From Promethearchaeota archaeon (GTDB lineage Archaea > Asgardarchaeota > Heimdallarchaeia > Hodarchaeales > Hodarchaeaceae): DNA of 64,000 bases. The first letter of the stretch is position 1. Every line of letters begins with the position of its first letter. A program made the translations under genes and the position numbers. The stretch covers positions 96,001 through 160,000 of the forward strand of contig JBHLMN010000013.1 in assembly GCA_048938105.1 (NCBI GenBank). The letters are read 5' to 3'. Shown here in pieces: positions 6,163 through 63,050 of the stretch. The notes beneath the pieces are model-generated. The model was not told where the DNA came from, did no database searches, and worked only from the letters and a program-made list of their open reading frames with translations.

Positions 6163-6234
6163 ATGAAAACAATACGAATCGAAGAAATGAACTGGCAAGC
6201 TATTAAGGAAGCCATTAACCAGGATTATAAATAA
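6163..6234 (+). pseudogene. 5' fragment (codons 1-20) of the creatininase-family gene, cut off by the insertion
   Basis: Translates MKTIRIEEMNWQAIKEAINQ|DYK*, the EEMxW N-terminus typical of creatininases; joins in frame to NQ|GYLTVVFGIGSIEQHG at 14629. Confidence 0.88.
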
Positions 6235-6235
6235 C
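6209..6235. repeat. attL of the integrated element (core TAACCAGGATTAT, 6216-6228)
   Basis: 13-bp core, with 1 mismatch, repeated at 14628-14640; TAA-N6-TTATAA geometry. Confidence 0.8.
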
Positions 6236-6342
6236 AGAATGATTTTATTTCCCTCTATTTCTAAAAAACTTGTTACACATGATACAAAATATAATAATCC
6301 CACGTATGAGAGCTTTATTGAATTAAATTTTGGGGATATATG

Positions 6343-7363
6343 CATGATTAAACTTCAATTTAAAATAGTAAACGAGTTTGAAATATCTGAAAATGCAATC
6401 GTTGGGTGGTTAAAGTCAGTTAATGAGTATGAAAGATATTTCTTAGAGAGAAAACACCTAAATCGACGCAACCTCGGCAATTTCGGAGAATTTATTGGCA
6501 AATTCATTCTTGAAAAGGAGTTTATACTTTATCAAAGAAAAACAAGTGATAGAAAAATGATACCTTGGCTTATGTTTGAAAAAGAAAATGTCTTACTAGA
6601 TAGCTATTATCTTGCCAATTTATTTTCAAATATAGAGGATGTGAGTGTTAAATCGAATATCAAAGCATGGTTGGGTGATGAAAAATTTTTATCCTTAAGA
6701 GAACATACAGGAGAGTATTTAGGAGAAATTTCTTTTGAAAAGAGAGTAGAATTGGGATTGGACGCTAATAATCAAATGATCTGCTGGAAAGAATGGAAAA
6801 AAAAGACTCTTAGATATGGACCTTTCATATTCACGTTTAAAGACCATATATTAGAGGATGTAAGGAAATCATTCATTGATTATTGGAAAAGAGAGACTGG
6901 TGCAAAATTAACGCTTACGGATACATTGGGAGTTCCTTTTGAATATTTAATAAAATGGTTCTTCCCAGAGGGGGAGAAAATAGAATATCAAAAGTGGAGA
7001 GAATATTTATACAAACGAGTGCGTTATTTTGACATTTCTTCTTTTTTGGCAAAAAACACTCAAATTGATGTGAATGATTTTATTTGCACAAATAAGGTAT
7101 TTCTCGATTTAGACTTAGATGTTTGGGGGATTCCAAAGGAAAATTCAGATTTTTTTAATAAAAAGTACTTGTATGCAATTGATTATAAATCACATAGGAT
7201 AAAATGTGTTGATCATGGAAAATATCAGACACCAGCTTTATACTTTCAACAAAGGAATTATGTAAAATCTCTCATCTTAACACAGATTGGGGTATTAATT
7301 CTATCTCTTCAATTTTGCGATTGCGGAAGAATATTTTGTAAATATTTAGTCCCAATGGTGTAA
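6343..7363 (+). CDS. PD-(D/E)xK superfamily nuclease-like protein
   Basis: RNLGNFGEF (GxxGE helix), DLDLDVWG and YAIDYKS motifs. Start probably ATG 6343 (MIKLQF); the ORF track start is 6239. Confidence 0.55.
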
Positions 7364-7874
7364 TGTATTCTTTTCAAAATTATAGCATGAGGATTAAATA
7401 GATGAACGTTACCTAATGGTTCATATTTAATGCTTATGGCTCCATTTGATATTGATGGAGAAAAAGCTAATGAATATATTATTAAACAATCTATTAAGTC
7501 TATTATTAGTCTTTTCGGGATTTTCATTAGGCCAATGCAACATCCATACACGAGTATTCTCAGTCTTGAGTAATGCGTTCTATGATCCTGAAATTTTCAA
7601 AGTATTACATAAACAAGGATTACTCGAAAAAACAAACAATATAGGTCAATGGAAGATTAAAGAGTCCTCCTACACCTTTTTACAAATATTTATTTGTAGA
7701 AAGGCTCTTTTATATCTGTTCTTTAAGAAACATATCGCAGTCACTTTTGTTCGGTATATTACTAATAGAAATTTTATAGAATCAATGTATACATTATGTA
7801 TTAGGTACGGGTACCTTACAGACGTAGTGCAAAATCTTAAATAGATGAAACGATTCTTTCTAGACTGATTAACA

Positions 7875-7997
7875 TTGATAGACTTAACGCCATTATATAA
7901 TGGACTTTGGACAATCCTTGGAGTCATTTTAGTCTTAGGACTCATAGCATACTTCGGTGATCTACTAGTATCATTTATAGATAAGATTAGTAAATAA
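7875..7997 (+). CDS. small single-TM membrane protein (40 aa)
   Basis: TTG start; MIDLTPLYNGLWTILGVILVLGLIAYFGDLLVSFIDKISK; below the ORF track cutoff. Confidence 0.4.
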   Translation: MIDLTPLYNGLWTILGVILVLGLIAYFGDLLVSFIDKISK

Positions 7998-8040
7998 TCA
8001 GAATTCAAAATAAAGATGATTTCAAGAGTATGAGGGAAGA

Positions 8041-8079
8041 CCACCTCCTCTCAGTCAGGAGTGGCATTATTTATTTTTT
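8041..8079 (+). terminator. hairpin plus T-rich tract
   Basis: CCA-C-CTCCT...AGGAG-TGG stem followed by TTATTTATTTTTT. Confidence 0.3.
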
Positions 8080-8109
8080 ATAGGCATATTATAGGAATAA
8101 GAGGAGACG

Positions 8110-8373
8110 ATGAGAATGAGTAATCAAATTTGTATAAGCTGTGGCAATAAAGCCAAGTACAATTGCTTGAATTGTAACAGACCAATTTGTGGTAGATGTA
8201 GAAGTAAACAGAAGAAGATCAAGGATGAATCTCTCCTTAGTTTAATAGGAAGTACAGCAGATAGTCTATATTACCGTCCTGCTGGGTTATGTAAGGATTG
8301 TAGACCTATTGTATTAATGAAAAGAGGAATCGATACTTATTTTAAATTGATTGATATAATAAGAATTAACTAA
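8110..8373 (+). CDS. small Zn-finger protein
   Basis: Four CxxC pairs (CISC, CLNC, CGRC, CKDC); GAGGAG RBS. Confidence 0.7.
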   Translation: MRMSNQICISCGNKAKYNCLNCNRPICGRCRSKQKKIKDESLLSLIGSTADSLYYRPAGLCKDCRPIVLMKRGIDTYFKLIDIIRIN

Positions 8374-8390
8374 GGGAGGTTAGATGATTT

Positions 8391-9038
8391 ATGAAATGTC
8401 CGCATTGCACAGTTGAAATATTCGCAGATAAAAAATACGAACAAATTTACAATTTTTCTGATAGAAAAGGAGATTGGAGATTAGTTTTTTTCAAATGTCC
8501 TAGTTGTATGAATTTTACTTTTGATCTAGAGAATGGAAACCGTAGTAAAACTGCGTTTGATATAAAAGAAACAATTAGAGTATATCCTAAAGGCAGCTCA
8601 CGTCCTCCTTGTCCTCAAGAAGTTCCTCAACATGTAGCAGAAGACTATACAGAAGCTTGCTTGGTTCTTATTGATAGTCCAAAAGCCTCTGCTGCATTAA
8701 GTAGACGCTGTCTTCAAAATATTCTTCGAGAAGCTGCTGAAGTTAATCCTAGCAATCTTTCAACAGAAATTCAAGAGGTATTAGATGGTAAAACTTTACC
8801 TACTTACATTGCGGAATCTATAGATGCGGTAAGGAATATTGGTAATTTTGCAACTCATCCAAATAAAAGCAATAGTACAGGTGAGATATTACCCGTCGAA
8901 CCAGAAGAAGCAGAATGGAATTTAGATGTACTAGAAGCATTATTTGACTTTTATTATGTCCAACCAGCTAAGATACAAAAAAAGAAGGGTGCATTAAATA
9001 AAAAATTAAAAGAAGCAGGTAAGAAACCTATGAAGTGA
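8391..9038 (+). CDS. DUF4145 (HEPN-like) domain protein with N-terminal Zn ribbon
   Basis: CPHC/CPSC; DYTEAC...SPKASAALSRRCLQ; RNIGNFATH (R-x-N-x-H HEPN-like motif); GGAGG RBS. Confidence 0.85.
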   Translation: MKCPHCTVEIFADKKYEQIYNFSDRKGDWRLVFFKCPSCMNFTFDLENGNRSKTAFDIKETIRVYPKGSSRPPCPQEVPQHVAEDYTEACLVLIDSPKASAALSRRCLQNILREAAEVNPSNLSTEIQEVLDGKTLPTYIAESIDAVRNIGNFATHPNKSNSTGEILPVEPEEAEWNLDVLEALFDFYYVQPAKIQKKKGALNKKLKEAGKKPMK

Positions 9039-9050
9039 GGAATTAATATA

Positions 9051-9755
9051 ATGACCAAAAAGATCTGTTTTTTAATTTGTCCTATTGGTAAGGAAGGTAG
9101 TCCAGAGAGAAAGAGAGCTGACCAGCTTTATAACCACATTGTGATTGAAATATTGAAAGAATATGATTTTGAAGTCATTAGAGCAGATAAAATCGGTAAA
9201 CCAGGAATAATTACTCTACAGATTATTGAACAGTTAAATAGTGCTGACTTGGTTATTGCTGATTTGAAAGGGCATAATCCTAACGTGTTTTATGAGCTCG
9301 GGATTCGTCATGTCATTGGAAAACCTATAATTCAGATATATCATCCTGATGAACGAATCCCTTTCGATGTATCTGGATTAAGAAGCATTACACTTGATAT
9401 ACAAGACTTAGATAGTGTAAAAAATTGCATAACAGAGCTAAAAGAGCAAGTAGAATCGATTTTGGAAAATCCTGAGGAATTAACATCACCTTATACTACT
9501 GCTATTGATTATCAAACACTAAGATCAAGTGAAAATCCGATTGGAACAGCTTTAGCGGATATCAAAGAAAGTATTGAGAGTCTAAGAACACAAATAGAAG
9601 AATTAGAACATTCTACAAGGTTTGTACCAATAACAAGAACGAGATTTGATTTAAGTAAATATTTTACTGATGACAAAGAACGAAAAGCTTACAAAACATT
9701 GCAAGAGGCTTTTGATGCACAACCAACTAATCAAAACAACAATGACGAGATTTAA
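9051..9755 (+). CDS. nucleoside 2-deoxyribosyltransferase-like (NDT/TIR-like) protein with coiled coil
   Basis: CFLICPIG...VIRADKI...ADLVIADLKGHNPNVFYELGIRH...IPFDV. Confidence 0.8.
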   Translation: MTKKICFLICPIGKEGSPERKRADQLYNHIVIEILKEYDFEVIRADKIGKPGIITLQIIEQLNSADLVIADLKGHNPNVFYELGIRHVIGKPIIQIYHPDERIPFDVSGLRSITLDIQDLDSVKNCITELKEQVESILENPEELTSPYTTAIDYQTLRSSENPIGTALADIKESIESLRTQIEELEHSTRFVPITRTRFDLSKYFTDDKERKAYKTLQEAFDAQPTNQNNNDEI

Positions 9756-9810
9756 AGCTTATTGCAATGATTACTTACTGAGTACATTAAGGATAGCGAA
9801 TCCTAATATC

Positions 9811-10371
9811 CTATTCCTCTTCTTCTACTTCATTAATTTCATTTAATTCTCTTGATTCTTCAATTAATGGTTGATGCTCGTTCTCCACACTTTTAGTTTC
9901 TTTAATCTCTCCTCTGTGGACATAAAACATAATAGTTAAAAGGAACATAAGGATTATGAAATATACCATAATTCCATTGGTAAATGAGGAGGAATAAGTA
10001 AATATTTCATCTAATGCATAATGCCCTTCCATAAAGTAAATGACCAGAGTAATAATACCTATCACTGATAAAATTATTGTCACAAGGATAATATGTCTTC
10101 CTATTATCTTATTTCTTTCATTTCCAAAGAAAGTATTTACTAGAAAAACGTACGAACTGAAAACACCAATTGTTAAGATCAACCAATTTTGCATTTCGGT
10201 TGGATCATAGGACAATCCATAATCGAGAAAGTATTGCAACATTATAAGACCACAGATAACGAAAGTAAAGCAGAGTGCTTCTTTGTAAGCCTCTTTTAAT
10301 CTTTGAGTATCAAACTTATTCCTAATTCCCTCTAACCTCATCTTGATCTTTTCTCCCATTAATATCAACAA
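9811..10371 (-). CDS. hypothetical 4-TM membrane protein with acidic tail
   Basis: Four hydrophobic segments; Glu-rich C-terminus; start uncertain (10371 or 10359). Confidence 0.65.
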   Translation of the reverse strand: MLILMGEKIKMRLEGIRNKFDTQRLKEAYKEALCFTFVICGLIMLQYFLDYGLSYDPTEMQNWLILTIGVFSSYVFLVNTFFGNERNKIIGRHIILVTIILSVIGIITLVIYFMEGHYALDEIFTYSSSFTNGIMVYFIILMFLLTIMFYVHRGEIKETKSVENEHQPLIEESRELNEINEVEEEE

Positions 10372-10528
10372 GTGTTTAAGAAAAACTCAGTTATTCAGTT
10401 AAATAAGCCTTTCGAACGCAGAAGAACTCTAAATGTTTTCTCCTGATTACGTACACCTCCCTCCTAATTGTTCATTGAAGTTTTGTTATATTCAATTCCT
10501 GAAATCAGGAGTTTTAATTTAGAACTTC

Positions 10529-11932
10529 TTAGAGAAATCCTCTCCTAATTTCTTTAGATATTTTCTCATAAGTCTTAGGGTTAATGTCAGCCCTTAGAAG
10601 AAGTAAATCAGAAATAGGCTGCCTAATCCCAAAATTATCGAATTTAGAGATGACCTTAATAGCGATCTTTGTGGTAATAATCTCTAAAATCTGATTTAAT
10701 TTTGGGTTTAATTCTTCAAGATTTTCAACGTATATAATTTCTGCTCCTGGCTTGACTCTGGCAAAATATTCTTGAACTTCAGGTGCAATCTTCTTTGTTG
10801 ATACTATTATCGCATAATCAGGTTTATAGAGACCAATTCGGCCTCCAAAAGGATACGCATGTCCCATTGAAAATTCGTTGTCCTTAAGTTCAAACATTAG
10901 CAATGTTCCCTCTAGATCAATAAAAGCATCTATTTCCTCGGTTCCTTCTAATAAATTAAGCAATATTTTATCTCTAGGAATACCGAGCTCGATTAATACT
11001 CTTACTAATTTAGCTGTCATCCAATAGCTATGATCTAACATTCTTTTTAAATCATCTGTCGGACTAAAAAGCGTTTCTATTCTTTCTTCAGATATTGGAT
11101 TACCACAAGAACACAAAACACCCATTTGGGTCATTTTTTCGATCGAATCTTTCGATTGAACTCTATTAATTTGGTTTGAAGTTTTATTACAAATCACAAC
11201 ATACTCTTGTGAAAGGAGATTAACCTTTGTCAATTCTTTAATGATTTCTTGAACTTCTTCTACTTCCCTACCTGCCTTTTTTTCGAGATCTGTGGCTAAT
11301 ATCCCACCTGATCTTTTTATTAAAAGAGCTAGATGTCTAATTGAAGGATTTTCTAGGTATATTGATAGCTCAAGATCATCTTCAGATATATTATTTGAGG
11401 GAATAAACCTTGTTTCTTCACTATTAGAGAGCCCTTCAAATTTTTGGTTTACTGTCTGAAGTTCTTCCCAAGCAAAAGTTAAATCAAGGTCATTTAATAT
11501 TATATTTAAACTGTTTAATAGGTTTTCAAGCTGATCAGGACTCTCATCAACTTTAAGACAACCTACCTCAAGAAAATATTTTCCCTTTTCATCTTTAGAA
11601 TCACCTTTTCTTTCTTCTTCTTCTTTATTTACTAGGATATATAGAAAACCATGTTCATTAGGAGTGTAATAAAGGTCTCCAATTATAGGATTCAAAGATT
11701 CTTTATAATATCTAAAAAGAGAGTAAGATCTATAGATAAAGTCTATCTCCAAATCTCTCATTTTCCTTGTTTTTAAATCTGATTCCTCAACACCGAATGT
11801 TTCAAAAAATCTCTTCTCAGCTTTCGATATTAACGGGTTGAATCCCTCTTCAGCTAGTTTATCTATAATAGAGTCGAAATATTCTATTTTATAATCAAAA
11901 GGAGTTATTTTCCTTTTTATTTTTATTGTCAT
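10529..11932 (-). CDS. multidomain protein: wHTH, Zn ribbon and C-terminal PD-(D/E)xK restriction-like nuclease
   Basis: LATDLEKK...IIKELTKVNLL (wHTH); CNKT...CSCG; EEIDAF...FELKD catalytic motif. Confidence 0.7.
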   Translation of the reverse strand: MTIKIKRKITPFDYKIEYFDSIIDKLAEEGFNPLISKAEKRFFETFGVEESDLKTRKMRDLEIDFIYRSYSLFRYYKESLNPIIGDLYYTPNEHGFLYILVNKEEEERKGDSKDEKGKYFLEVGCLKVDESPDQLENLLNSLNIILNDLDLTFAWEELQTVNQKFEGLSNSEETRFIPSNNISEDDLELSIYLENPSIRHLALLIKRSGGILATDLEKKAGREVEEVQEIIKELTKVNLLSQEYVVICNKTSNQINRVQSKDSIEKMTQMGVLCSCGNPISEERIETLFSPTDDLKRMLDHSYWMTAKLVRVLIELGIPRDKILLNLLEGTEEIDAFIDLEGTLLMFELKDNEFSMGHAYPFGGRIGLYKPDYAIIVSTKKIAPEVQEYFARVKPGAEIIYVENLEELNPKLNQILEIITTKIAIKVISKFDNFGIRQPISDLLLLRADINPKTYEKISKEIRRGFL

Positions 11933-12081
11933 TGTTAAACCCCTCTCTAAATGTACGGTTTTTCGGCTTTACTTAAAAAATCTCTTATTTAACCAAAGAT
12001 ATTTGTTCCCCTTGTTTTTATCTTTAGAATAATACTAATTCTTTAGTCTCATGATTATTTCTCTTAAATATCTTAATTAGA

Positions 12082-13157
12082 TTAGGTCGGAGTAACCTTA
12101 AGGAATCCAAAACCAATTAACTCTTTTATCAAGTCCATTGCTTTTGCTTTTAGCATATCTTTATCAAAAGAGATGTAACCTAAATCACTAAAATCACTGG
12201 CGAGACTTACTCCTGTTTCTTTAAGAATAACAATTTTTTTCCCGTATAAAACACCAGCTGCTCCTAATTCGAATACTGCATTATCACTCGGTCTAAAAAT
12301 CTCATTATCATTCTCATCAATGTACTTTTCATCAGCAGTGAATATTACAATCGCAGATGTACATTTATGCATCAAATCAGCTATTTTTTCTGATATGGGA
12401 CGTCCTATATGTGGTTCATCAACTGCAACGCTGTAAGGAACTTTAAATTCATCTAGTATGTTCTTAAGTTGCTCCAGTGGTTTTCTTTTTTTTCCATGAA
12501 TTATAAAAATCTTGTTAATATGTGGTTTTTCAATTAGAATAGCAGGGGGTGCTTCTACAGGCTCCTCTTCTTTCACCACTAATCCAAGATCTTCCATTTC
12601 TTCTAGTTCAGAGATCTCTTCATGCGTTGCTGGTACTCTAGTAGAAAGATTATCTAATCGTACATATGTGCTACCACTAATATCTTCCAAGATACCTAGT
12701 TCTGTTCCATTTTTAGTAATCATCTCATAACAAGTTGTGACATCATCCTCAGGAATTTTAAAGTCTCTAGTAAATGTATTCTGGATAGGTTCTAATTGGG
12801 GGAATTTATGAGTATCGTAACGCTCGAAAAATACTTTGAATACTTTAATAGAAAGCAAAGCCTCAAGAAGTGCATTATTTTTCTCTTCAATATTTTGTGA
12901 AGCAACTATTGATCTACCTCGTTCCGTTAGTGAAACACTCTTTGCAGCAAACTCCCTTTCGTAAGACCAAATTGACCTGAAGCAGTTATAAGGTTTCTGA
13001 ACCAGCTACTTGTTGGTGATTGCTCCAAAACCTTTGCAAGGTCTAAAATAGCATATGGTTCTCCTGCATTATAATCCTGGATCGCTTGTGCCACCCTTAC
13101 TGAATCCATTAAACTCTTTCTGGGAAATAGACTTTTTCTTCTCTTTTTCTTAGCCAA
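12082..13157 (-). CDS. TIR-domain (CAP12/Pycsar-like nucleotide-binding) protein with N-terminal wHTH-like region; frameshifted at about 12950
   Basis: IFIIHG...AIVIFTADE...RPSDNAVFELG...SDFSDLGYI. ORFs 12927-13157 and 12082-12858 join into 358 aa (GS-FAAKSVSLTERGRSIV) if one base is added in the 3-base run at 12949-12951. Confidence 0.75.
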
Positions 13158-13202
13158 TTCCTACTCACCTAATTCTTTAATGTTATTTTATGTTATTCTC
13201 CC

Positions 13203-13601
13203 TTAAATTCTACCAAAAATAATCATTAAAAGAAATATAATAAATGCAATCGTAAGAAAAAAGCTAGTAAACCCCGAACCACCACTCATTGTATATATGT
13301 CTCTTCCTAATTTGGTAGTTTTTTTAACACGATTATAATTTCTGGTTGGCGATACAACATCTGTGATGGCTTTTTTTGTTTCTTTTTTAACTCTTGAAGA
13401 TGCCAGTCTTTGTTTAGTAAAATCCGACCACGATTTATTTCTTTTAATTTTACCATATCTGTCAAAAGACATCGCTCTTGTTTTACCACGAACGTTTATC
13501 CTTCGCCAATCCTCTTCTTCACCACCTTTTATTGCTGCAAGCTTAATAATTATTAGAATTCCGATTATAGCAAATACTAATATAATTATTTCCTCAATCA
13601 T
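13203..13601 (-). CDS. hypothetical protein with N- and C-terminal TM helices and a basic loop
   Basis: Hydrophobic termini; Arg/Lys-rich centre. Confidence 0.6.
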   Translation of the reverse strand: MIEEIIILVFAIIGILIIIKLAAIKGGEEEDWRRINVRGKTRAMSFDRYGKIKRNKSWSDFTKQRLASSRVKKETKKAITDVVSPTRNYNRVKKTTKLGRDIYTMSGGSGFTSFFLTIAFIIFLLMIIFGRI

Positions 13602-13893
13602 GGTGAGACCCCTATACTTTTACCAAATTAGTAAGAAATCTGATTGTAAGTTATTTACCTTACTCACATTACTCTAACCAATTTCTCGGTCATGTTCTCT
13701 AGGAAAATCATCTATTTAAGATTTGCCTTCTAAGAGCTATATTCTTGTAGTGCCTAACTTCTGTACCTAAGGCCACCATATTTAAAATAATACATTCTTT
13801 AAAAAAGAATTAAAAGCCATTAAATACTCTATTCATAATAAGAAAGGTGATTTGATAATGAAATAAAATACTGAGGCTATTTTGACATTATTT

Positions 13894-14385
13894 TCATATA
13901 CCATTTAATTTAAAGATCAAAGAGATTGTGAAAAACAGAAAAAATATAAGAAACAACGATTCACCAGTGAAATAAGCACGATTGCACCATTTTTCTTTGT
14001 TGAGAACAAATTCAACTAATAATTCCTTATTTTTGAGTTTTCTCCATTCACTGGCCTTAATCTTTAGATGTTCTAAATAAGATTGTTTTTTTCCATTTTT
14101 ATCCAAGGGAAAATGGCTTTTAAACAGATAAAAATTGCCAGTAATCTCGTCATGATTGCTTCTAATGTACATAATTACAATTAACCAGACAATAGTAATT
14201 AGTAGAAAGATAATCGTATAAAATCCTAGATCTGCTCTCCAAGCAAAATAAACCATTCCAATACTGAGAGTAAATAGATAGTGTGTAAACGATAATCTAG
14301 TTTGTAGTCTCTCTTTAACAGCGGAAACAAGATATTCAAAGATCTTATCATCTAAATCAACTTCGTTTTGTTTATTATTAGACAT
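13894..14385 (-). CDS. hypothetical membrane protein (3 TM)
   Basis: Hydrophobic segments; GGTG RBS upstream. Confidence 0.65.
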   Translation of the reverse strand: MSNNKQNEVDLDDKIFEYLVSAVKERLQTRLSFTHYLFTLSIGMVYFAWRADLGFYTIIFLLITIVWLIVIMYIRSNHDEITGNFYLFKSHFPLDKNGKKQSYLEHLKIKASEWRKLKNKELLVEFVLNKEKWCNRAYFTGESLFLIFFLFFTISLIFKLNGI

Positions 14386-14619
14386 ATCAACACCTAATTA
14401 CACTTTAATTTATCTGATTCCCTCTATCCTTCTATTTTTATAGCACAAGTGATTATAAAAGTACTTATAAGAAGGAATTACCTAAAGAAATAAATAAACC
14501 TTTCGAACACAGAAATATACAATTTGTTGGCAAGATTTTGCGTGGTGTGTAGTTCACATATGCTGAAACAGCTGAATATACAGGTTTTTGTTTTTTTTGA
14601 CTTCACTTTTGAAGTCATT

Positions 14620-14647
14620 TTTGATTATAACCAGGGTTATTTAACAG
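14620..14647. repeat. attR of the integrated element, dif-like 11-6-11 (TTTGATTATAA CCAGGG TTATTTAACAG)
   Basis: Core matches attL at 6216-6228; coincides with the start of creatininase homology. Confidence 0.8.
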
Positions 14648-15324
14648 TAGTTTTTGGGATTGGATCTATTGAACAACATGGACCTCACTTACCAACCAAC
14701 ACGGATGCCTTAATTGGTGATGTTCTAGCTAATAAAGTAGCAGAAAGATTAAAGAATGCTTTACAAGCCCTTACAATGCGGGTAGGTTGTTCGCGTCATC
14801 ATATGGCTTTTCCTGGCACAATTTCGTATAAAGATTCAACTTTGAAAGCTGTTATCCACGATTATGTGCATAGCTTAGTACATCACGGTTTTAAGAACAT
14901 TATTTTAATCCCTAGTCATGGAGGGAATTTTAGACCAACACAAGAAGCGATTGATGAGCTCAAAGAAGAGTATCCCGATAGTAAAATTATTGGTTATACA
15001 GATCTTTTTGGGCTCTTGGATGCTTTACATAGATTTTCAGGGGAATTTGGCGTCACAAAAGAAGAATCTGGAGCACACGCAGGTGAATCTGAAGCTTCTC
15101 TTATGTTAGCTTTGGCAAAAGATCTTGTTAAAGAAGAATCTTTCGAACCTGGATATGTTGGAATAGTTGGACCAGAACAATCACAACTTATTTTTGAAAA
15201 GGGAATGACTGCATTAACAAAAAATGGTATTTTAGGAGATCCAACAAAGGCAACAAGTGATAAAGGCGAAGTATACCTTGAAAATCTAGTAAAACTTCTT
15301 GTTGACGAAATTAAAAGGAATTAA
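14629..15324 (+). pseudogene. creatininase/MftE-family amidohydrolase, 3' part of the interrupted gene
   Basis: GSIEQHGPHLPTNTD, HHMAFPGTIS, SHGGN, HAGESE and NGILGDP motifs; native N-terminus lies at 6163. Confidence 0.88.
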
Positions 15325-44783: not shown

Positions 44784-46093
44784 TTAGAACAAAGAACCTC
44801 TCAGGAAATTCAACCAATGTGAGGGCCACCTAATGATAGTCACTCGTACAGAACAGATTTGGTTAAAAACACACAAAACCTTTTCATGGTTCTGTCATCT
44901 CTCAAAAAATCTCTATAACGAAGGAAATTACCTTATCCGTCAGGAGTTTTTCAATCATAGTAAATGGATTCGGTATAATTCCCTATATCATCTCCTTAAA
45001 ACTTCGGATAATTATCACCGACTTCCTGCTCAAACAGCTCAGCAGGTGTTGAAGATCCTTGATAGGAGTTGGAAATCCTTTTTTATCGCTATCAAAGCAT
45101 TGAAGAAGAATAAGTCGAAATTTAACGGGAAACCAAAACCCCCTGGATACAAACCAAAGAATGGGGAGTTTCTGCTAGTTTTTACTAAACAACAGGTGAA
45201 ACTAAAAAATAGTGTCTTGCAATTTCCTAAAAAGGTAAGTATTAACCTAAAAACCAGACTTCATGACAAACCAGACATTAGAGAGGTACGAATTATCCCA
45301 AAAGGGGTAGGTTATGTGGTAGAAATCGTTTATAAGAGAAAAATCCATCCTAAACCTTTGAATAAAGATAATATTGTGGCTATCGATTTAGGGGTACGCA
45401 ATCTCATAACTACAGTCAATAACAATGGTTTAAAACCATTTGTTATTAAAGGTGGGGTTGTTAACTCCATTAATCAATACTATAATAAAAAGCGGGCCAG
45501 AATTCAATCAACATATGACCATCTAGGAATTAAAAGAGGAAAAGCTATACAAAAATTAACCCATAAACGTAATAAAAAAATCAATGACCATTTCCATAAA
45601 ATTAGTAAAAAAATTATTGAGTACTGTGTATTGAATGACATCGGAACCGTTGTTATCGGGTACAATCCCAATTGGAAACAAAATTGTCATATTGGTAAAA
45701 AAAATACACAGAGTTTTGTCACCATTCCATATTACAAGCTAATTCAGCAATTGGAATACAAAGCTGAAGAACAGGGAATGACTGTTATTAAACAAGAGGA
45801 AAGCCATTCTAGTAAATGTTCTTTTTTGGATGATGAACCAATCGAACATCACGATAAATATCTAGGGAGAAGATTTACTAGAGGATTATTTAAATCCTAT
45901 AAAGGTATTATTATTAATGCTGATGTGAATGGGGCATATAACATTCTGAAAAAAGCATTCCTGAACGCGGTTGACGCTGACAGGATAGAGGCTGTTGGGT
46001 TACATCCCACACGATGGAGACTAGCTTCGGTGACGGGCTAGTTGATGACCTCGTGTGAATAAAATTAAATATACTATAAATAATTTTAATAAC
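44784..46093 (+). mobile_element. IS200/IS605-family tnpB-only element (ends approximate)
   Basis: tnpB without tnpA; 3' hairpins at 46021-46041 and 46061-46087; ends in AATAAC. Confidence 0.6.
44833..46041 (+). CDS. tnpB: RNA-guided endonuclease TnpB (rearranged RuvC type)
   Basis: AIDLG, VIGYN, QEESHSSKCS, NADVNGA. Confidence 0.92.
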   Translation: MIVTRTEQIWLKTHKTFSWFCHLSKNLYNEGNYLIRQEFFNHSKWIRYNSLYHLLKTSDNYHRLPAQTAQQVLKILDRSWKSFFIAIKALKKNKSKFNGKPKPPGYKPKNGEFLLVFTKQQVKLKNSVLQFPKKVSINLKTRLHDKPDIREVRIIPKGVGYVVEIVYKRKIHPKPLNKDNIVAIDLGVRNLITTVNNNGLKPFVIKGGVVNSINQYYNKKRARIQSTYDHLGIKRGKAIQKLTHKRNKKINDHFHKISKKIIEYCVLNDIGTVVIGYNPNWKQNCHIGKKNTQSFVTIPYYKLIQQLEYKAEEQGMTVIKQEESHSSKCSFLDDEPIEHHDKYLGRRFTRGLFKSYKGIIINADVNGAYNILKKAFLNAVDADRIEAVGLHPTRWRLASVTG

Positions 46094-61659: not shown

Positions 61660-63050
61660 TCCCAATGAAACCCGTGAATTCATTCAGGGGAGGAATTGGG
61701 GAAGGAGAAAAGATTATTTGCAGTATTATACCACCACATATAATAATATATAATATTACAAATGAAATAATTGTTAAATACTTATACATTTTGTTATAAA
61801 GCAAAAATACTTTGATCTTACTCTCATCTAAGCTTAAATATTTGGAGAACCCCAGTCTAGGTGTCATGCGGCGAACTATCCAATGTCCACTACCTGCTGA
61901 AAATGAGCTATTAGAAACGATAAAAACCTATAACAAAGCAGTTCAGCATGTTATTGATAGAGGATGGTCAAGAAGGACTTTCAACAAAAATACCCTCCAC
62001 TTTGAAACGTATAAAGCTGTTCGTAAAAGATATCCTTGTCTACAGTCATCACTTGTCCAGTGCGCTCGCGATATGGCAGCTGACATACTTAAGCGTGAAA
62101 AATTCAACCATAACCGACCTATTAAAAAGGTATTAAGTGGGATTCGATATAATCAACGCACATTCACCCCCTTCTTAGAAACAGGGGTGATTTCTATTAG
62201 CACAATCGCTGGTCGAAAAAGATATCCGTTTATAATCCCTGAATATTTCCAGCAGTACCTTGTTTTTGGGAGGATCAGCTCACTAACACTCTATTATAAC
62301 AAAAAAAGGAAGAAAATCATCGCGTATTTGACAATGGAGTTACCAGATATTCCTGTGGAAGAACCTTCTTCCTTTCTAGGAGTAGACCGGGGTATTAAAC
62401 GGATAGCCGTTTGTTCCAATAATATGTTCTATCCCACTAATCATATACTAGCTGTGAAGTGGAAGTATCAACAATTACGAAAACGCCTTCAGTCAAAAGG
62501 CACTCGATCCGCCAAGCGTAAATTACGGTTGGTTAGTGGTCGAGAGAGACGGTTTATGACTGATGAAAATCGTAATCTAGCTAAATGGATCTGTAATATG
62601 CCTAATAATTGTATTGTATTAGAAAACATTCGTGGGTTGAAACAACATAGCAAAAAGGAGAACAAAGCATCTAAAAAACTTCGTCGGAAATTTAGTAATT
62701 GGTCTTATTACCAACTCGAACAATTTATCATTGAACGTGCTGAAAAGGTTGGAAAGACGGTTTTATTTGTCAATCCTCGGTATACTTCGCAGAGGTGTTC
62801 GTGTTGTGGTTATATTTCCTCTCATAATCGTTGTTTTCAATCGTCCTTTGTGTGTGGTAACTGTTCTCTCCAATTGAATGCTGACCTTAATGCTGCCCGT
62901 AACCTATCTGATTTTGGCATGTCCGAGATCAGGAGGGCTTCTGTCAATAGCCCTAATGTAGCGGTCCTTCCCATGACCATAGGAATTTCCTCGTTGAGTC
63001 GTGGGACGGTTCTAGCTACAAGCCATTGAATTCATTCAGTGGTAATTGAC
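61660..63050 (+). mobile_element. IS200/IS605-family (IS1341-like) tnpB-only element
   Basis: Matching subterminal hairpins CCCGTGAA-TTCA-TTCAGGGG (61671-61690) and CCATTGAA-TTCA-TTCAGTGG (63023-63042); right end TTGAC; left boundary approximate. Confidence 0.75.
61866..63029 (+). CDS. tnpB: RNA-guided endonuclease TnpB (canonical RuvC, Zn finger)
   Basis: GVDRG, VLENI, YTSQRCSCCG...CGNC, NADLNAA; start ATG 61866 (MRRTIQ). Confidence 0.92.
   Translation: MRRTIQCPLPAENELLETIKTYNKAVQHVIDRGWSRRTFNKNTLHFETYKAVRKRYPCLQSSLVQCARDMAADILKREKFNHNRPIKKVLSGIRYNQRTFTPFLETGVISISTIAGRKRYPFIIPEYFQQYLVFGRISSLTLYYNKKRKKIIAYLTMELPDIPVEEPSSFLGVDRGIKRIAVCSNNMFYPTNHILAVKWKYQQLRKRLQSKGTRSAKRKLRLVSGRERRFMTDENRNLAKWICNMPNNCIVLENIRGLKQHSKKENKASKKLRRKFSNWSYYQLEQFIIERAEKVGKTVLFVNPRYTSQRCSCCGYISSHNRCFQSSFVCGNCSLQLNADLNAARNLSDFGMSEIRRASVNSPNVAVLPMTIGISSLSRGTVLATSH

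Follow-up and report, generated by a model that had tools for sequence, protein, structure and literature searches.

An integrase-less island in a creatininase gene of a Hodarchaeales archaeon and its relation to a genus-wide family of 28-bp sites

A creatininase gene of a Promethearchaeota archaeon (Archaea; Asgardarchaeota; Heimdallarchaeia; Hodarchaeales; Hodarchaeaceae) is split by the insertion of an island in which no integrase is recognised. The island lies in a stretch of 64,000 nucleotides, positions 96,001 to 160,000 of contig JBHLMN010000013.1 (GenBank assembly GCA_048938105.1), called here the window, and coordinates without a further label refer to this window. By its right end the island is a member of a family whose 28-bp sites, in this genome and its relatives, stand in arrays of gene modules, and the island itself is an off-array member of that genus-wide module system. 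In bacteria, the hijacking of Xer recombinases by mobile DNA is well known. For archaea, a literature search, outside which most subscription papers lay, gave no such case; a review of archaeal recombinases makes no mention of Xer-exploiting integrative mobile elements (IMEXs), papers on Asgard mobile elements make none of Xer, and no description of an Asgard dif was found.

The insertion and its attachment sites

The two borders of the island are hybrid attachment (att) sites of two 11-bp arms around a 6-bp spacer (11-6-11; Table 1). The left one, attL, consists of arm GAAGCCATTAA, spacer CCAGGA and arm TTATAAATAAC, and the right one, attR, of arm TTTGATTATAA, spacer CCAGGG and arm TTATTTAACAG. 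A crossover within the common CCAGG takes 8,412 bp out and restores a stop-free creatininase (PF02633) of 249 amino acids. In what follows G000 is the source genome, C-numbers are its contigs, other G-numbers are relatives and L-numbers are loci. The creatininase gene is uninterrupted in four sister species (G014, G009, G015 and G011; identity 73-83%), all of which have the same upstream neighbour, a hydrolase gene, while G014 and G009 also have the same downstream neighbour, an oxidoreductase; this intact syntenic gene fixes the empty site and identifies the island as an insertion. The insertion is thus real. Since the residues at the junction are Q-G in all five closest orthologues, CCAGGG is assigned to the target (attB) and CCAGGA to the element (attP), unless the latter arose by a later mutation. 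The direct repeat agrees at 12 of 13 positions, the probability of this being about 1.5e-6 when the pair of positions compared is fixed, and a Logan contig of the probable source run covers the island without differences. No joint of a precise circle or of an empty site was present in the contigs of the source run, and the other two runs, in which the organism is hardly covered, gave only 2 and 6 partial reads, so the test had little power. The 3' part of the gene is stop-free and its balance of synonymous and non-synonymous changes is near that between intact orthologues, which argues for a recent event or for continuing use of the gene through the in-frame ATG at the island end.

The reconstructions of attP and attB in a first-pass annotation of the window were correct, and its description of attB as a weak site inside a gene holds as well: attB scores 3.3 bits, the top score in a 6-kb stretch of the empty allele, and a strong site at the target is not conserved among the creatininase orthologues. 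On the same scoring attP reaches 1.8, compared with 13.9 for attR, and no close copy of it, such as a host dif might be, was found elsewhere in G000. Five of the 6 spacer bases are the same in attP and attB, and such agreement is preferred in tyrosine recombination. Not supported, on the grounds given, is the view of attP as a dif-like site. By the host's own standard, an arm model trained solely on array sites of G000, the attP arms score -2.7 and -6.0 bits; a shift of the register of the attL right arm by 2 bp was tried and brings its score only to 0.1 bits. Moreover, the inverted TTATAA pair on which the likeness had been based is common: TATAA-N6-TTATA occurs in 42 copies in the genome, so it is weak as evidence and, taken alone, not distinctive. 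One of these copies lies within the island itself (14448-14475), 5' of the last open reading frame (ORF), and is probably a promoter or due to chance.

The 28-bp site family and its link with xerA

The evidence on the right end comes from its recurrence. The stretch of 40-140 bp that leads up to the attR spacer is found again in G000 and in relatives, with the homology stopping at the spacer, and this end module comprises an inverted repeat (14598-14617) followed by the left arm of what we call a class-A site. A 20-bp motif of the end has 24 matches in 6 genus genomes and 0 in their reversed-pattern controls. The sites concerned are 28 bp long with 11-6-11 geometry, about 70 of them in G000, and fall in two classes by spacer: class A with CCAACG (27 sites in the genome versus 2 in shuffles) and class B with CCAGCC (43 versus 1). 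Both classes are clustered, in arrays that are mostly co-oriented. The strict class-A pattern is present in 15 of 21 genus genomes; when it is widened slightly, all that is gained outside the genus is one match each in 3 of the class's 61 other genomes. In pairwise comparison of 166 class-A sites, the left flank alone is shared by 145 pairs and the right flank alone by 65 (210 one-sided), compared with 3 that share both; each arm goes with its own flank, so exchange takes place inside the spacer. The sites are also asymmetric. The right arm is conserved, with a median of 9-11 bits and the outer CGACAT as its conserved bases, and the left arm is variable, with a median of about -0.7 bits; for class A, left arms are usually low-scoring (median -0.6 bits), as is that of attP. 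In G020, spacers CCAAGG and CCGAGG accompany the same or a similar TTTGAATATAA-type arm and bridge CCAACG and CCAGGG. About 11% of class-A sites have arm-like repeats at distances of 12 and 24 bp ahead of the left arm, the copy in the island scoring only 3.5 bits, and these may, rather weakly supported as they are, be accessory binding sites.

A collection of viral sequences held no class-A match, and its two class-B matches were dismissed as chance hits within a phage gene. Two further features of the arrays deserve mention. Gene-less mini-modules of 46-61 bp, each with a pair of short repeats, lie between tandem class-A sites (L085:9891-9989, L098:13379-13431, L050:1147-1200, L075:5189-5242, L041:9072-9133); the same ones recur in different species and contexts, and their role could be that of accessory binding sites or of promoter or operator units that are mobile. 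In addition, within one defence-rich array of G000 (C63:8748-72664) the class-B sites reverse their orientation between 42.9 and 50.6 kb.

The link of the family with xerA rests on a conserved position. The source genome encodes a true XerA on contig C14 (about 173.98-174.84 kb), which scores 278 bits on NF040815 against a cut-off of 220, has its catalytic residues intact and finds its closest structure in Pyrococcus abyssi XerA (PDB 4a8e as best match). Just upstream of xerA, within 90 bp of its start, the arm model trained on the G000 arrays has a match of its best type: the conserved family arm (TTTGACGACAT-like) is present there in 12 of 13 genus genomes (p <= 0.002 each) and in four of five held-out ones, 16 of 18 in total, as well as in one of the sister family's two genomes. 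The arm is found in both orientations, in surrounding DNA that cannot be aligned, and coding is not the explanation since in most genomes it is either not in frame or has a stop after it. Over the genome as a whole, single arms show no enrichment (213, with about 190 in shuffles), so that only the conserved position counts as evidence. The simplest reading would be an autoregulatory half-site of XerA, in which case the array arm would be a XerA binding sequence and the arm before xerA a candidate for such a sequence in Asgard archaea. Apart from this arm, a second inverted repeat (GGATAAT...ATTATCC-like) stands upstream of it in many xerA promoters (L180, L181, L178, L183).

Several candidates for dif itself were rejected. 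Symmetric two-arm sites occur about once per genome at two mismatches, but they are non-syntenic and their spacers are unrelated; TAACCAACGATCAATGACAT occurs once in several genomes and is the end of a shared module. In G000 such symmetric sites with unrelated spacers are intergenic (C14:86371, C14:250384, C18:78217, C63:92690, C2:22058, C28:1273 and C47:22221), and those at C14:86371 and C28:1273 have 118 bp of right flank in common while spacer and left flank differ. A symmetric site at the radA-pyrE junction is confined to the closest subclade (L125:1501-1528 in G014, L154:3118 in G008, L156:1136 on C11 of G000, L206 and L207), with spacers that differ by species. At this junction modules are inserted in G009 and G011, and pyrE is absent there in G000; the site is a candidate resident target or possibly a dif of the subclade.

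The recombinase behind the insertion

No recombinase was found in the island. Genome-wide searches with PF00589, PF00239 and PF07508 gave no match in it, and a six-frame search for relics with a hidden Markov model built from local tyrosine recombinases gave nothing below E = 0.24; the genome has three loci for tyrosine recombinases and four that are resolvase-like, all of them on other contigs. The first-pass annotation is supported in its proposal of a recombinase-less module moved in trans into a cryptic site within a gene, the mover being a tyrosine recombinase. The island is, however, no lone element but a member of the module system. The remark in that annotation that such an element is not known to have been described for the group agrees with the literature search noted above. 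As to the mover, it had named host XerA or a helper integrase. We lean, though not strongly, towards XerA-dependent movement on account of the xerA-linked arm, and the helper integrase stays a serious rival.

The course of events may be pictured as follows. The island would be a cargo module, itself non-autonomous, within a genus-wide system of tyrosine recombination with 28-bp, 11-6-11 crossover sites, which normally join gene modules in same-direction arrays. It would have come as a circle or as part of a larger incoming molecule, with an attP made up of a class-A left arm, CCAGGA and a right arm of its own, the last perhaps stemming from an earlier cryptic site. A single off-target recombination would then have joined it to the cryptic creatininase site, with five of six spacer bases shared and weak arms. 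The enzyme would most likely be host XerA acting in trans, possibly aided by the arm-like repeats of the end module, much as in bacterial IMEXs and pdif modules, though at a site other than the chromosomal dif. In favour of XerA, five site-bearing genomes (83-95% complete) hold no tyrosine recombinase besides it.

A number of observations weigh against this account. The attP arms score low on the very model that also fits the xerA-linked motif, the attP spacer differs from CCAACG at two to three positions, and the left arm of the island fits neither spacer class and has no relatives that we could find. The score of attB is matched or beaten by 3,175 positions of the genome, which, with the weakness of the site, makes the insertion an off-target event. 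The motif before xerA amounts to half a site, and some other regulator could bind it; symmetric-site searches of the genus genomes gave no single conserved chromosomal dif with which attP might be compared; and the genomes compared are kin and incomplete metagenome-assembled genomes. Family sites adjoin 8 of 10 units of a ribbon-helix-helix (RHH) gene and a tyrosine recombinase in the genus, in fixed orientation and 50-500 bp upstream of the unit (p 0.0003-0.03 each), and the held-out unit G020:C94 adjoins one too.

This is the usual layout of an integrase next to its att site, and it would be expected if a helper integrase of the RHH-linked family, residing on autonomous elements, had moved the island in trans without XerA. 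We hold such a helper to be unlikely on balance. The recombinase on contig C56 (C56:201303-202139) is intact and stands at one end of a unit of 13 kb that has class-A sites as its borders, and there is a parallel in Atabeyarchaeia, where two integrases less than 25% identical share one att motif, 11 bp long and similar to class-A left arms (PMC11529989). However, close relatives of the C56 enzyme are found in just 6 of 82 genomes, the viral collection holds no relative of it, and the RHH-linked recombinases are 20-48% identical in most pairs, with two distant clades adjoining the same spacer; enzymes so patchy and so divergent fit poorly with one conserved arm. A helper also leaves the arm before xerA unexplained, and it is missing from the five site-bearing genomes mentioned above, incomplete as these are. 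An improbable combination of both enzymes would have XerA on the conserved arm and an RHH-linked recombinase on the variable one, or a helper that activates XerA as XafT does for the TLC phage. The asymmetry of the sites and the link of the arm to both xerA and the RHH units would agree with this, but the arms are also found flipped across the spacer, and for that one tolerant enzyme would be just as good an explanation. Very improbable, finally, is illegitimate or microhomology recombination, or some other enzyme, with the end module a passenger at the right border. It would account for a left end without class or relatives, and if a 2-bp gap is allowed, the direct repeat grows to about 20 bp, with AACAG at its end; against it, the homology of the end module ends at the border of arm and spacer, exactly where the gene is split, and the join is precise and in frame.

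The C56 unit (C56:200741-213867, with L065 as its recombinase end) also carries defence-like genes, and its reconstituted attP has near-perfect inverted arms; the unit is a candidate autonomous element. A broken tyrosine recombinase with an internal stop (C45:377-844, L003) lies on a 5.9-kb contig of foreign-looking genes.

Returning to XerA, a wider reading is that in Hodarchaeales XerA, the one recombinase that resolves the chromosome, has been turned into a genome-wide machine for gene capture, with dozens of co-oriented sites of two classes holding defence and metabolic modules; to us the chances of this are evenly divided. They are just as even for its corollary that stray insertions like the island break up core genes and may be the start of further arrays. 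If true, this would be the first archaeal system of IMEXs or dif modules, in a lineage near the ancestor of eukaryotes. It would explain how defence genes are imported and reshuffled in that lineage without dedicated integrases, and it would raise the question of how XerA is controlled without FtsK with about 70 chromosomal sites. What the present locus gives, and arrays alone cannot, is a defined attP, attB, attL and attR together with a known empty allele, which makes the enzyme testable in vitro with substrates of 28-60 bp.

Cargo of the island and comparison with known systems

The ORFs of the island (Table 1) are defence-like, mostly of antiviral type, or orphans, and no replication or transfer gene was recognised among them. 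The 339-aa and 467-aa proteins are probably two nucleases, on the strength of leads; the look-alikes of the latter include no recombinase, and its single-sequence fold was unsuccessful (predicted local distance difference test 36). Neither the left end nor the first ORF had a match in metagenomes of the Joint Genome Institute or in five relatives, and the homologues of the first ORF are on short contigs without family sites. Short gene fragments at 7533-7698 and 7933-8051 are 74-87% identical to array-associated loci of G009, G018, G005 and G019, which suggests that older modules were pieced together in the island as a mosaic. Elsewhere in the window, two ORFs of about 390-400 amino acids (44833-46041 and 61866-63029) look, by sequence appearance, like TnpB-family accessory proteins of insertion sequences.

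Table 1. The island, its attachment sites and its genes, with the parts of the interrupted creatininase gene (positions in the window)
Feature	Position	Strand	Remarks
Creatininase 5' piece	6163..6223	+	codons 1-20; stop now just inside the island
attL	6208..6235	+	target left arm, CCAGGA, island left-end arm (poor match to family arm; no relatives found)
Island	6219..14630	.	8,412 bp, integrase-less; GC 0.317 versus 0.36-0.37 in flanks
339-aa protein	6344..7363	+	PD-(D/E)XK nuclease-like, structural lead only, template-modelling (TM) score <= 0.6; two homologues at ~40%
Small zinc-finger (B-box-like) protein	8110..8373	+	
DUF4145 / PD-T7-4-like defence protein	8391..9038	+	
TIR / nucleoside-deoxyribosyltransferase-like effector, coiled coil	9051..9755	+	
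Membrane protein, family unknown	9811..10371	-	
467-aa protein	10529..11932	-	family without a name, largely bacterial; possible Card1/Mrr-like nuclease domain
CAP12/Pycsar-type TIR gene (PDC-S35-like)	12082..13157	-	apparently frameshifted: ORFs 12927-13157 and 12082-12858
Small membrane-anchored orphan ORF	13203..13601	-	
Orphan membrane protein	13894..14385	-	transcription away from attR
Right-end module	14492..14630	+	72-77% identity to class-A site ends in G000 (C6, C3) and G006
attR	14620..14647	+	left arm of class A; spacer CCAGGG and right arm from the target; class-A model score 13.9 bits
Creatininase 3' part	14631..15324	+	stop-free; in-frame ATG at 14560 (island end) could give a substitute N-terminus

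Regarding known systems, the island resembles the IMEXs (CTX, VGJ and TLC phages, the gonococcal genomic island GGI and EludIMEX-1; PMC5357621) in having no integrase of its own, in its 11-6-11 att sites, in the tolerance of degenerate arms and in the proposed use of host Xer. It differs in that its enzyme would be a single archaeal XerA in place of XerC/XerD, and in that it sits in a coding gene, at a cryptic site, and not at the chromosomal dif. With the pdif/xrs modules of Acinetobacter (PMC6449649, PMC11705084) the system shares accessory genes bounded by 28-bp Xer-type sites without an own recombinase, many sites besides dif, two spacer clusters and one more conserved arm. Those modules, however, are mostly on plasmids and served by XerC/XerD, whereas here we have a chromosomal contig with core genes, mostly co-oriented arrays and XerA. 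A pdif module is bounded by an inverted pair of C/D and D/C sites, and xrs cassettes form cointegrates and do not excise (PMC11705084), in contrast to the direct-repeat hybrids of the island, which are like those of an integrated circle.

Among archaeal systems, XerA/dif of P. abyssi (PMC2958812; review PMC8371274) has a true XerA orthologue and 11-6-11 geometry in common with ours, and the inner TATAA/TTATA bases of its dif recur in attP; yet archaeal dif is described there as single-copy, while about 70 related sites are present here, with outer CGACAT as the conserved bases. Integrons and clusters of attC sites lacking integron integrases (CALINs), including archaeal ones (PMC9668308), likewise form co-oriented arrays of swappable accessory genes, often with no recombinase nearby. 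They use attC hairpins of 55-140 nt at the cassette end, however, and not 28-bp junction sites such as those mapped here by flank exchange; no IntI is present (TIGR02249 scores of 173 and 64 versus a cut-off of 265), and the genes here face both ways. The Yucahu-i and mini-Yucahu-i elements of Atabeyarchaeia (PMC11529989) are Asgard elements too, and their 11-bp att motif, shared by unrelated integrases, resembles class-A left arms; the nested, circularising mini-Yucahu-i of 2.6 kb has no integrase among its listed genes. Unlike the island, Yucahu-i has an integrase and a helicase of its own; circles were observed, and XerA is unmentioned in that paper. In the family of modules described here, the right end of the island has its place, with an end module that stops at the spacer, but the left end, with CCAGGA and -6.0 bits, falls outside it. 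Taken together, the island works like an IMEX or dif module, likely through a host enzyme, while it is neither an IMEX, a pdif module nor an integron in the strict sense.

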